A DNA stretch of 64,000 nucleotides, taken from Dictyostelium discoideum. Its lineage: Eukaryota. A program made the position numbers and the translations under genes. Below the pieces are notes generated by a model, which had not been told where the DNA came from, searched no databases, and saw only the letters and a program-made list of their open reading frames with translations. Below, in pieces: positions 26,801 to 31,854 of the stretch (within the stretch, counting starts at the first letter, position 1; the number at the start of each line of letters is the position of its first letter). The DNA lies in NCBI GenBank assembly GCA_000004695.1, contig CM000152.2, forward strand, positions 5,120,001-5,184,000. Direction: 5' to 3'.

Positions 26801-29800
26801 TTGGGTACAACATATTGGATTAAACATGCTTTAGATTTATTATTAGCAATTTTACCAAATGATAAATTTGTTAAAATTTCAAATTTCTGTTCAAAATTAC
26901 CAACTTCTTTGAAATTTGCTAATCGTAATGGAAATGATATCAACCAACAACAACAACAACAACAACAACAACAACAACAACAACAACAACAACAACAACA
27001 ACAACAACAACAACAACAACAACAACAACAACAACAACAACAACAACAACAACAACAACACCACCAACAAGAACAACCAATGGAAATCGATGAGAATCTA
27101 GTAGTTGAACAATCATCATCGGTGAATAAAGGTAATGAAGAATTTAAAAAATCATTAAAATTACATACTCAATGGTTAGAATCATTAAAAAATGAAGAAT
27201 CATTAAAATTTAGTGAATTTAATGAAAATCTTAGAGAGTTAATTTTTATTGATTCTCATTTAGTTAATGATTTATGGTGTCATCTATTTAGTGATATGTG
27301 GTCAGATTTAACAAAAGAAGAACAATTTAAATTATCAAAATCTTTAACTTTATTATTGTCAAAAGATTATACAAAGAAAGTACCTTTAGTTAGTAAACCT
27401 ATTATACCACCAACTTCAATACCAATTTCAAAACCAATAATAACAACAACAACATCAACATCTTCATCAACTTCTACAACAACACCAATAACAACAATAC
27501 CATTAATTAATAATTCACAATTAATAACTATTGTTACATTAACACAACAACAAACTAATCCAATAATTGTACCATCATTAAGAGAACCAAATGTTATTAA
27601 AACATGGATGGAAACTTTAGGAATGTGTAAACCAATACCAAAGGTACCAATTGAAGTTATTAGTTTTTTGGGTGAAAATTATAATTGTTGGTATTATGCA
27701 ATTAGAATGATTGAACAACAATTAATTGATAGACAAAAACTTTTAGATTCAACCGATATCAATTGGGATTATCTTTCCTATCTTTATGGTGCAATTGGTG
27801 AAAAGGATTTACTTTATGGTATTTATAGAAAGAGATATCAATGTGATGAAACTAAACTTGGTCTATTGTTAGAACAATTTTATATGTTCCAATCTTCACA
27901 AGAGGTATTTTTATCGGCAATGAATAAATATTCAGCGGTAGGATGTAAACCAACACCACGTAGTGAAAATCTATTATGGGAAGATCATTGGTTAGAATGT
28001 GCAAAACGTTTAAATCAATGGAATTTCGTTCACGAATTTTCAAAAGAAAAGAATATGTATGATCTTACGATTGAGTCAGCTTGGAAGATACCACAATGGA
28101 ATTCAGTGAAAGAGAATATGAAGAAAATGATGTCACAAGGTGATACAAGTATTAGAAAAATACTTCAAGGTTATTTCTTAACAAATGAAAAGAGATATCA
28201 TGAAGTTGACCCTGCAATCGTTACCTCTAATCAATTGATTCTCGATAAATGGGTATCATTACCTGAACGTTCTTTCCGTTCTCATACTAATAGTTTGGTG
28301 GAAATGCAACAAGTCGTTGAATTACAAGAATCGGTTCATATCTTAAAAGAAATTAGTAACATCACTCTATCACAACAACCTGCTGATTTAAGTCGTTCAT
28401 TCTTAACTTCCAATTATATAAAATCAATTTTCAATATTTGGCGTGAACGTCTACCAAATAAAGATGAGGATCTATTGATTTGGTTCGAATTAATGGCATG
28501 GAGACAACAAGTATTCAATATCATTGGTACACCATCAATGAATGGTGGTATCGGTGCTAATCCAGTGACACCAACAAATACCACTACCACAATCACAAAT
28601 CCTGACGGTACAACCACTACAACTACAACTCCATTACCACCACCACAACAACCAATCAATCAAATTGAATTTGCTTCACCACGTTATATGGTTTTAGAAA
28701 TGGCATGGACAATGAATAAATACTCTCATATCGTTAGAAAACATAACATCATAGAGGTTTGTTTAAATTCTCTAAGTAAAATGTTTGATCTTCAAATTGA
28801 ACTTCATGATATCTTTTTAAATCTTAAAGAGCAAATTAAATGTTATCTTCAATTACCAACTCATTATGATACGGGTATTTCAATTATCAATAGTACAAAC
28901 CTCGATTTCTTCACTCCAATGCAAAAGGGTGAATTCCTTCAATTGAAAGGTGAATTCTTAAATAGATTAGGTCGTTATGATGAAGCAAATCAATCTTTTG
29001 CCTCCTCTGTAAGTCAATATGAAAACTCGGCAAAGAATTGGATAAGTTGGGCACATTTCTGCGATAATCAATTCACCAATCATAGTAGTAGTTCAATAAC
29101 TCCTTCTTCAACTCCTACCACTTATGATATTAAAACTCAATGGGCTGAATCTGCAATTAGTTGTTATATTCAAGGCATTAAATGTGATCCAAAATATGGT
29201 AGTCGTTATGTTCCAAGAATATTCTGGTTACTTTATCTAAATGGTTCTGGTGAAGTTCCTCAACAAATACAAACTCAACAACAACAACAACAAGCAGCTG
29301 CTCAAGGTGGCTTACCACCACAACCAAGAAAACTAACACCTGCCCAATCTGTATTCCAATCATTCTTAAATTCATGGACTATTCTTCCACAATGGATTTG
29401 GTTAAATTATATGCCTCAATTGATTTCAGGTGCTGCTAATCTTTTAAATTTCCCAGGTTATGGTTTCCTTTGTTGGCAAATGATTGGTAAAATTTGTTAT
29501 TTATTCCCAAATTCTTCATATTATCATTTTAGAAAATTAGTTTTGGAAATGAAATCAAATGCTTCTAAATTTACTACCTCACCACCTACAACAACAACAA
29601 CAGCAACAACAACAACAACAGCAACAACAACAATAACAACAGCTACTACAACCTCAACACCAACTCAAATACAACACCAACTCAAAATACAACTACACCT
29701 ATTAAAGAAGAATCATCTACAACTACTGCAACTACAACACCAGCTGTACCATCAACTTCTACTCCAACTTCTACATCAGCACCAGCTCCAATATCAACAT

Positions 29801-31854
29801 CTACAAATACCCCACCAAATGCTACAACAACAACTCCACAAGCAAATACAACATCACCACCACCACCAAGTTCAACATTCTCACCACTTAAAATGACAGA
29901 AACATTATCACTTGGATTGCATCAATATCATTCTTGTTTAATTAATGAAATTGATATGATGTTAGGATCATTTAGTATATTATCAGGTAGTATACCAGCA
30001 GTTTATCAATTTAATGGCTCATTAAATCAAATTTTATTAGAAGCATTCAAATTGAATAAGATTGAAGATTCAATATATAATTCCATTCGTTCATTATATA
30101 AACATTATTTCGTAAATGAAATTAAATATCAAAATAGTAAAGAATTTTTAGAAGCCTATAAGAGTGAATTTAAAGTTGATTTCATTGAATTCAATTTAGA
30201 TGATATTGTATCTGATACAATTAAAAAAGAATCTGATCAAGAAACTAATGTTGTTGAAGGAACTACAAATGTCTCAAAAGAATTAGAAACGACATCAGAA
30301 AAACAACAACAACAACAACAACAACTTCCAACAATTTCAATTTTATTATTAATTGAAAAATTAATTAAATGGATAGATAGAAAACCAGATAATTCATTAA
30401 TAACAGTTGTTAATACTGATCAATCAACAAATTATTATGGTATTGATACAATGATATGTTTAGAATCAATTTGTCCACAATTAGTAAATTTCAAACCATC
30501 AATTTTAGAGATACCAGGTCAATATAATACAAATCGTGATCCAAATATTGAAAATAATGTTAAAGTTGAAAAGGTTGGAATGTTTGCAAAATTAATTAAA
30601 CATTCAAATGGTATGGTATGTCCAAGAATTACATTATATGGTGGAAATGGTAAAGCTTATCAATTTTTAATTGAAAGTTCACCTTCATTAATTAATGGCA
30701 TCACCAATAGTAATAACAACAATGTAGCACGTGTTTATGAAAGAAAGAATCAATTGCTAGGTTCAATTAATTCAATGTTGATAAAGAATCGTGAAACTAG
30801 AAGAAGAGGTCTTACACTTAATTCTTATCCAACCGTTGTACCAATTAAAAATTCATTGACAATGATTCAAAATATTGGTAATGATTCAATTAAACAATTG
30901 GCTGAAGTTTGGTATACTCATTCAAATCAATCAAATCTATTTAAACCAATGTTAAAATATAAAGAAATGTTATTAAATTCAAATCTTCATACTGAATTAT
31001 TGTCAAAGAAAGATCAAGATGGTGATTTAGAATTTACAAATATTACAGAGGATAATAATATTAGTAGCAGCAGCAGCAGCAGTAGTAGTAGTGGTAGTAA
31101 TAGTGGAGAAAATTCACCAATTATAGATTCTAGTAAATTAGTAGTGTTTAGAGAAATGTCAAAAGAGATTGGTGATGAATTAATGATCAATTATATTCAA
31201 TCAACATTATTACCAACCAATTATCAAGATCAATATGAATTTAAATTAAACTTTTCAAATCAATTTGGTTTACATTCATTATTGCAATACATTCTATTCT
31301 CAGATATTGGTGATATTGATCCATCAAAGATTTATTTAACAAAATCTACAGGTTCAGTGTATTATAATGATTGGTCATTAAAATTAACAAATCGTAAATT
31401 AGGTTTTGATTTACTTCAAGATAATCCATACAATCAACAACAACTATTAAGACTATCACCAAATATTAGAAATTATTTAGGTCCTTTATATTTAGAAGGT
31501 AGTTATCTTTCTTCAATGATTTCAACTTGTATTTGTTTATCAGATTTAAAGGATCAATTGGTTAATTCAATCAATTTATTCATTTTCGATGAATATATGT
31601 GTATGAATAATGTTGAACCATTACAACAGAGTGAACAAAATAAAGATAGAAACATTCACTATGAATTCATTGATAAAACTACCGCCACTGTTCATCAAAT
31701 GCTTGAAAATAGAATTGATTCTTTAACTCCTTCCTCTCAACCTGATAAAACCTGTTTTATCTCTCCAATAGTTAAAAAAGTAAATCAATTAATTCAAAAT
31801 TCTTTATCTTCAAATATTTCTCAATTGGACCAATTATCTTGTCCATGGCTTTAA
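17846..31854 (+). CDS. tra1: TRRAP/Tra1 (transformation/transcription domain-associated protein; PIKK-family pseudokinase of SAGA/NuA4); exons 17846-18184, 18310-21654, 21788-31854 with a -1 frame discontinuity near 29670
   Basis: The conserved Tra1 N-terminus is present (FESYARR..LVTEIRDNIELVHTVEYPTFLNFLFPVFYNILRQG | VQFNDGPEQKIRNTILDILNKLPNNELLRPHIL..DNEENALVCLRIIIELHKNYR). There are giant HEAT/FAT regions. A PI3K-like kinase-fold segment is present (MVCPRITLYGGNGKAYQFLIESS...). The FATC ending is ...QLSCPWL*. Introns are GTAAGT(18185)..cag(18309) and GTAATT(21655)..tatag(21787). Predicted total is ~4580 aa. Confidence 0.85.
21445..21552 (+). repeat. (AAT)36 microsatellite (poly-Asn) in tra1
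   Basis: Pure trinucleotide run. Confidence 0.9.
21689..21762. repeat. tandem duplication (2 x ~33 bp: tttatatgaaatatatattaaaatttttttt) inside tra1 intron 2
   Basis: Two adjacent near-identical copies are visible in the sequence. Confidence 0.8.
26943..27060 (+). repeat. pure (CAA)~39 tract encoding poly-Gln in tra1
   Basis: Uninterrupted caa repeat, about 118 nt. Confidence 0.9.

Follow-up and report, generated by a model that had tools for sequence, protein, structure and literature searches.

A one-base shortfall in a tandem repeat of the Dictyostelium discoideum tra1 gene, probably a reference error and almost certainly bridged by a curated 2-bp intron

The subject of this study is tra1, one very large gene that occupies positions 17846-31854 of the plus strand in a 64,000-nucleotide (nt) stretch of Dictyostelium discoideum DNA (the window; G+C 24.7%). 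The tra1 reading frame is broken in this sequence at a run of three adenines (A3, 29667-29669) that lies in a Thr-rich linker. The break is almost certainly known already as a curated patch, a 2-base-pair (bp) intron, and as a member of a published class of annotation artefacts. In what follows, the structure of the gene and the position of the break will be described, and the reading in which a single base has been lost from the AX4 reference will be weighed against readings in which the broken frame is real.

The coordinates of the tra1 exons and introns, together with those of the other features of the window, are collected in Table 1. The last complete codon of the upstream frame, whose codons begin at positions ≡2 (mod 3), is the CAA at 29666-29668; the downstream frame, ≡1 (mod 3), carries the rest of the gene to its C-terminus, ...SCPWL, and the stop codon at 31852-31854. 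When one A is restored at the break, a three-exon coding sequence (17846-18184, 18310-21654 and 21788-31854) results that encodes 4583 amino acids (aa). A reading made earlier from the sequence alone (hereafter the sequence-only reading) had proposed a single open reading frame (ORF) of ~4583 aa; the length holds, but the frame is distributed over three exons that are separated by two canonical AT-rich introns. Left unrepaired, the gene yields a product of 3930 aa that includes a junk tail, and 727 aa of true sequence are lost rather than the ~650 aa estimated before. Skipping the 2 nt at 29669-29670 instead gives a product of 4582 aa, which we take to be the UniProt length of TRA1_DICDI. The break falls at residue 3856, in the low-complexity linker past the FAT helices and ~200 residues ahead of the kinase-like fold. 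Two further features of the gene may be recorded here: a T-rich run of ~30 nt (17710-17739) lies upstream of the start codon, and intron 1 contains an A run of ~36 nt (18196-18231).

The upstream frame is open over 21788-29896, where it ends in a TGA at 29894-29896. It reads ...TTATTTSTPTQ (...KFTTSPPTTTTTATTTTTATTTITTATTTSTPTQ) and then continues through 75 codons of Q/H/L-rich junk. The downstream frame is open over 29569-31854 and reads ...TPTQNTTTPIKEESSTTT...MTETLSL...SCPWL*, its translation running through ...TPTQNTTTPIKEESSTTTATTTPAVPSTS...FSPLKMTETLSLGLHQYH... to the same end. Both frames are therefore open over 328 nt (29569-29896), and the switch between them cannot be located from the ORF map alone. 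A codon log-odds table was trained on the remainder of tra1 and every possible switch point was scored. The summed score has its maximum at 29665-29670, stays within 2 bits of it over 29662-29673 and falls steadily on both sides; the peak sits on the A3 run. Upstream of the switch the ≡1 frame is poly-AAC encoding Asn and its codon score is strongly negative, whereas from ~29665 onward its codon usage is positive and the downstream 2.2 kb stays open with no decay. The ≡2 frame has a positive score up to ~29665; downstream of the switch it abounds in the codons CTC, CAC, CTG and AAG, and its score is negative throughout. The net −1 change from frame ≡2 to frame ≡1 that had been claimed is thus borne out by the open frames and by the codon-usage change point and lies at 29667-29670, and the claimed decay of the ≡2 frame into a Q/H/L reading with a stop at 29896 agrees with its codon score. 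In the downstream frame, the earliest ATG (MTETLS...) overlaps the TGA of the junk frame. This overlap is probably a coincidence, because the low-complexity tract ends there.

The A3 run lies in the first of two tandem copies, just downstream of an (ACA)n-type run. As had been noticed before, the copies differ in an A3 as against an A4 homopolymer; the array ends, after the second copy, in a partial CAAC. Tandem Repeats Finder (TRF) reports it with a period of 17, 2.2 copies, 95% matches and 4% indels. The sequence-only reading had described a duplicated 20-nt repeat. Its two strings are each unique (a 19-mer at 29657-29675 and a 20-mer at 29674-29693), but they overlap by 2 nt, and the true unit is 17/18 nt. 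As read, the period-17 identity extends over only 15 nt; with one A restored in the A3 run, a perfect period-18 identity over 22 nt appears, as the sequence-only reading had expected of the repaired repeat. The repaired array duplicates six codons in frame (TPTQNT-TPTQNT). A pure frameshifting duplication of 17 nt was also considered and was rejected on the same comparison of identities (15 nt at period 17 as against 22 nt at period 18 after repair).

The gene is tra1/TRRAP, and by homology both halves belong to one protein. A Pfam search of the ORF at 21881-29893 returned Tra1_ring (PF20206, E=0, 1305 bits) and FAT (PF02259, 8.2e-44, residues 2061-2448). In the C-terminal ORF (29893-31851) neither PI3K (PF00454) nor FATC was matched by Pfam, even at E=10, and FATC was also not matched on the last 65 aa. 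When phmmer was run against PDB sequences, the downstream part aligned with the kinase-like region of yeast Tra1 (5y81_B, residues 705-1045, 1.2e-11), with residues 3513-3821 of 9ynu_A, a Tra1 of 3893 aa (8.2e-11), and with the kinase region of human TRRAP (7ktr_A, 1e-4). The previous description of this end as PIKK/FATC is accordingly upheld for the pseudokinase, by alignment to Tra1/TRRAP chains, but not by any Pfam match to PI3K or FATC. A repaired segment of 1283 aa aligned in order to the same Tra1/TRRAP chains on both sides of the break, its FAT region matching the FAT regions of yeast Tra1 and TRRAP, and in one of the aligned chains an Ala/Pro-rich insert of a different kind occupies the corresponding position. 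Taken with the Pfam domains, this in-order alignment to solved chains confirms the tra1/TRRAP identity that had been proposed. A homologue of 1468 aa (P0001, 33% identity), drawn from the ENA part of the protein collection and the only one returned for an 850-aa query across the junction, spans the break as one chain. A search of the protein collection with low-complexity masking returned only a homologue of 22% identity, and the collection contains no dictyostelid Tra1. Beyond the last aligned block there are 82 residues here, 72 in 9ynu_A and 70 in yeast, which are compatible lengths, and the ...SCPWL ending presumably resembles that of TRRAP. The Dictyostelium Tra1 pseudokinase is unusually diverged and bears Ser, Asn and Gln runs.

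A study by Singh et al. (2017, BMC Genomics 18:120, PMC5282741) listed 119 dictyBase introns of <5 bp in 102 genes. The authors argued that none of them is genuine and that they are artificial patches for errors in the reference. In clcD (DDB_G0278639) a 2-bp intron masks a missing reference base, and the extra base was found in 22 of 23 RNA sequencing (RNA-seq) reads. In DDB_G0279477 two 3-bp introns were contradicted by RNA-seq, the hidden TAA being TTA in 100% of the covering reads, and a 1-bp intron was termed implausible; a 2-bp intron is likewise not spliceable (PMC5282741). The tra1 site has the features of this class, since one conserved gene is broken by a frame change of 1-2 nt and no spliceable intron is present.

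Additional file 3 of the same study, in General Feature Format, contains an entry at chr3 5149668..5149671 on the plus strand (Length=2, Parent=DDB0229338), in which the skipped bases are chr3:5149669-5149670. These correspond to window positions 29669-29670 when base 1 of the window is chr3:5,120,001, that is, 80 × 64,000 + 1. Such a zero remainder on a 64,000-base grid is given by one of the 35 listed 2-bp sites; the other 34 do not give it in either orientation. The chance of a coincidence on the grid was estimated at ~0.3%, on the basis of two orientations and some three positions at which the skip could plausibly lie. In the curated skip the exon ends with CAA at 29666-29668 and the next opens with ACA at 29671-29673. 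No further tiny intron is listed within chr3:5,120,001-5,184,000, which agrees with the scan of the window. By this coordinate arithmetic, the window is most likely AX4 chr3:5,120,001-5,184,000 on the plus strand, the 81st tile of 64 kb, and the tra1 break is almost certainly the listed dictyBase tiny intron. The sequence-only reading had held that a reference genome and cDNA with the same A3 and a different gene model would speak against its interpretation. This holds in part: A3 stands in the reference together with another gene model, but that model is a curator's patch and not biology.

We estimate at roughly 87% the probability that a single base missing from the AX4 reference consensus causes the break. 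This assessment is based on the analogous tiny-intron cases that were checked by RNA-seq and on what is known of Tra1. In the AX4 reference, the first of two 18-nt units duplicated in tandem and in frame would have dropped one A, leaving A3 where A4 is expected. Most likely a base was miscalled, or the consensus was wrong, in this Thr-rich part of low complexity in a Sanger-era assembly. The cell would make one full-length Tra1 of 4583 aa that reads ...TPTQNT TPTQNT TTP... through the site, and the dictyBase curators would have bypassed the break by placing at 29669-29670 an intron of 2 bp, an impossible length, giving the 4582-aa database protein. The choice left earlier between an error and a strain-specific frameshift is thus narrowed to an error as the favoured case, on the grounds of the curated 2-bp intron and the RNA-seq precedents, with a truncation being unlikely.

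Several points weigh against the loss of a reference base. Runs as short as A3/A4 are not typical trouble spots of Sanger sequencing, and AX4 is a laboratory strain with a history of mutagenesis, so that private mutations do exist. No independent copy of the site, with its A3/A4 pattern, was found in metagenome contigs or in prokaryote genome contigs; a second pattern downstream of the junction had no match in metagenome contigs, and the 653-aa downstream ORF has no exact record among assembled contigs. In the study that defined the class, the RNA-seq verification covered only 2 of the 102 genes, tra1 is not named in the text, and the supplement gives no gene names (PMC5282741). Literature searches did not tie DDB0229338 to tra1 by name, and the link is made by coordinates on the assumption of a 64,000-base grid.

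If A3 were real, AX4 or the whole axenic lineage would carry a 1-nt deletion in tra1 and make a Tra1 of 3930 aa with a 75-residue junk tail and without the pseudokinase or the C-terminal end; such an allele would be hypomorphic or null and would be tolerated under laboratory conditions. The sequence as given does read A3, and the intact downstream frame would fit a very recent mutation. A real truncation is nevertheless unlikely because the organism is haploid and Tra1 is essential in yeast (S. cerevisiae); TRRAP is in addition required for mouse embryonic development, and one added C-terminal glycine on yeast Tra1 is lethal. The pseudokinase domain of yeast Tra1 is reported to be required if the protein is to localise to the nucleus and be incorporated into SAGA and NuA4 (PMC5982823). 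The curated patches of the class to which this site belongs were, moreover, reference errors wherever RNA-seq was examined (PMC5282741). It is more doubtful still that AX4 is truly A3 and viable in such a way that the pseudokinase/FATC end is dispensable, is supplied separately (e.g. from the ATG at 29893), or is reached by an unconventional shift in a Thr-codon repeat free of signals.

Readings in which a real A3 is overcome during expression, or in which the gene is divided there, are the least probable. A −1 shift anywhere in 29569-29896 would give the full-length protein, and programmed −1 ribosomal frameshifting or transcriptional slippage near the A run could in principle provide it; the 328-nt overlap, however, contains no X XXY YYZ heptamer in or out of phase, and the 141 nt from 29660 form only a weak fold (−6.6 kcal/mol, z = −1.8), in which the first 46 nt stay single-stranded and no stem adjoins the site. 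Transcriptional slippage needs ~7-9 or more identical bases and the run here is 3, and it is implausible that an essential scaffold would depend wholly on an inefficient shift. A real but unusual spliceosomal intron that bridges the break is hardly credible either. Although 41 GT..AG pairs of the right length class keep the coding sequence open, all are 57-70% A+T compared with 88-96% for the real introns of the gene and the window, none has a GTAAGT-type donor, and every one would excise either sequence whose codon usage is strongly that of coding DNA or FAT residues that are conserved; the claim that splicing offers no solution therefore stands. The ATGA stop/start overlap at 29893-29896 could suggest a naturally split Tra1, with a HEAT/FAT protein ending at the TGA and a separate 653-aa pseudokinase expressed from the ATG at 29893 on its own transcript. 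Against this very improbable arrangement, the ≡1 coding signal is unbroken over 29665-29893, starting 225 nt upstream of that ATG, there is no AT-rich spacer that resembles a promoter, and in the homologues found (P0001 and the solved Tra1/TRRAP structures of fungi and human) a single chain runs across the break. We also know of no case in eukaryotes of reinitiation after an ORF of 3930 codons.

The tra1 break is an isolated defect. Among all pairs of neighbouring coding ORFs on the same strand of the window, the junctions are canonical introns of 88-96% A+T except at the tra1 break and in the agnD-like gene. A generally error-ridden assembly was considered and set aside, as the exon junctions elsewhere are without exception canonical.

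The agnD-like gene has an in-frame TAA at 47023-47025 where the sister QQGGYYPPPP repeats carry CAA. Its Piwi domain is without profile positions 71-90 at ~49999-50012, where the frame changes from ≡1 to ≡2 with a deletion of ~47 nt; the deleted segment presumably would hold an MxxGxDVxH-type motif with a catalytic Asp. A gap of 100 N (46442-46541) directly follows an A11 run within the N-terminal repeat region of the gene. The published quantitative reverse-transcription PCR primer agnD-01 matches exactly at 50162-50188 and thereby identifies the organism as D. discoideum; AgnD has been reported as an apparent pseudogene (PMC11014262). For the published reverse primer agnD-02 (GTACCAATCCACCCAATGGTACAATGG, PMC4559204), a search of the window that allowed up to 3 mismatches found no match, and 46001-51500 gave no local alignment of good quality. 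In reverse complement agnD-02 overlaps the agnE-04 primer as listed, and it may be mislabelled or aimed at a paralogue. Elsewhere in the window, the long ORFs at 6421-10671, 33976-35871, 36503-38605, 43575-45563 and 61092-62858 on the minus strand and at 57619-60933 on the plus strand have no Pfam match.

Table 1. Features of the window; positions are counted from its first base.
Feature	Coordinates	Strand	Remarks
tra1 exon 1	17846-18184	+	ATG at 17846; only GTAAGT-donor intron combination that leaves the coding sequence open
tra1 intron 1	18185-18309	+	GTAAGT...CAACAG, 125 nt, 88% A+T
tra1 exon 2	18310-21654	+	Frame ≡1 (mod 3)
tra1 intron 2	21655-21787	+	GTAATT...TTATAG, 133 nt, 96% A+T
tra1 exon 3, frame ≡2 part	21788-29668	+	HEAT ring, FAT, start of Thr-rich linker
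(ACA)n-type Thr-rich low-complexity run	29588-29664	+	TRF period 3, 25.7 copies; just upstream of the break
Tandem copy 1, CAACACCAACTCAAATA	29655-29671	+	17 nt, A3 at 29667-29669
2-bp artificial intron (A, T), transcript DDB0229338	29669-29670	+	Most likely, by coordinate match to the dictyBase curated list
Out-of-frame tail of frame ≡2	29670-29896	+	75 codons, TGA 29894-29896, negative codon score
tra1 exon 3, frame ≡1 part	29671-31854	+	Rest of Thr/Ser/Pro linker, pseudokinase, C-terminus
Tandem copy 2, CAACACCAACTCAAAATA	29672-29689	+	18 nt = six codons, A4 at 29684-29687
ATGA	29893-29896	+	First downstream-frame ATG (MTETLS...) overlaps the junk-frame TGA
Alpha/beta hydrolase	1061-2053	+	Pfam
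ZIP zinc transporter	4806-5933	+	Pfam
DEAD-box helicase	12440-14310	−	Pfam
WW-domain protein	16073-17362	+	Pfam
Dyskerin-like pseudouridine synthase	41274-42893	−	DKCLD/TruB/PUA; Pfam
Argonaute/Piwi gene, agnD-like	46429-50689	+	Looks like a pseudogene; PAZ and Piwi detected
MaoC dehydratase	54994-55749	+	Pfam

The biological weight of the tra1 break is small. The AX4 reference retains about a hundred single-base defects behind impossible introns of 1-3 bp, and one such defect hits the gene of the largest subunit of SAGA/NuA4. The database protein (4582 aa, with ...TPTQ and TTPTQ... joined at the skip) is probably one residue short of a true protein of 4583 aa that reads ...TPTQNTTPTQNT... at this place. 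Automatic re-annotation tools will cut tra1 short at the break, and frameshift scans of the D. discoideum genome should be filtered against the published list of tiny introns. If A3 proved real in the reads, the Tra1 pseudokinase would have been lost or split off in a viable organism, and the site would then be of interest.

The protein can be compared with Tra1/TRRAP, the PIKK-family pseudokinase scaffold of SAGA and NuA4/TIP60, with which it shares the order of HEAT ring, FAT and kinase-like domain. Yeast Tra1 has 3744 aa and human TRRAP 3859 aa, while the Dictyostelium protein at 4583 aa is ~20% longer, the extra length being due to low-complexity inserts of the Dictyostelium kind that include the Thr/Ser/Pro linker with the break. 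In its kinase-like and FATC parts it has diverged too far to be recognised by the Pfam models. To programmed −1 frameshift sites, tra1 bears a likeness in its two overlapping open frames with the downstream one at −1; it has neither a slippery heptamer nor a stimulatory structure, and the resemblance is formal only. The closest counterpart is clcD, which is also a conserved multi-domain gene with a one-base shortfall and a 2-bp intron placed by a curator to keep the frame. The missing base of clcD is carried by RNA-seq reads, whereas tra1 is matched to the list of PMC5282741 by position, strand and length. Unlike in clcD, the shortfall in tra1 lies within one copy of an 18-nt tandem duplication, and the repair can therefore be read from the sequence alone.

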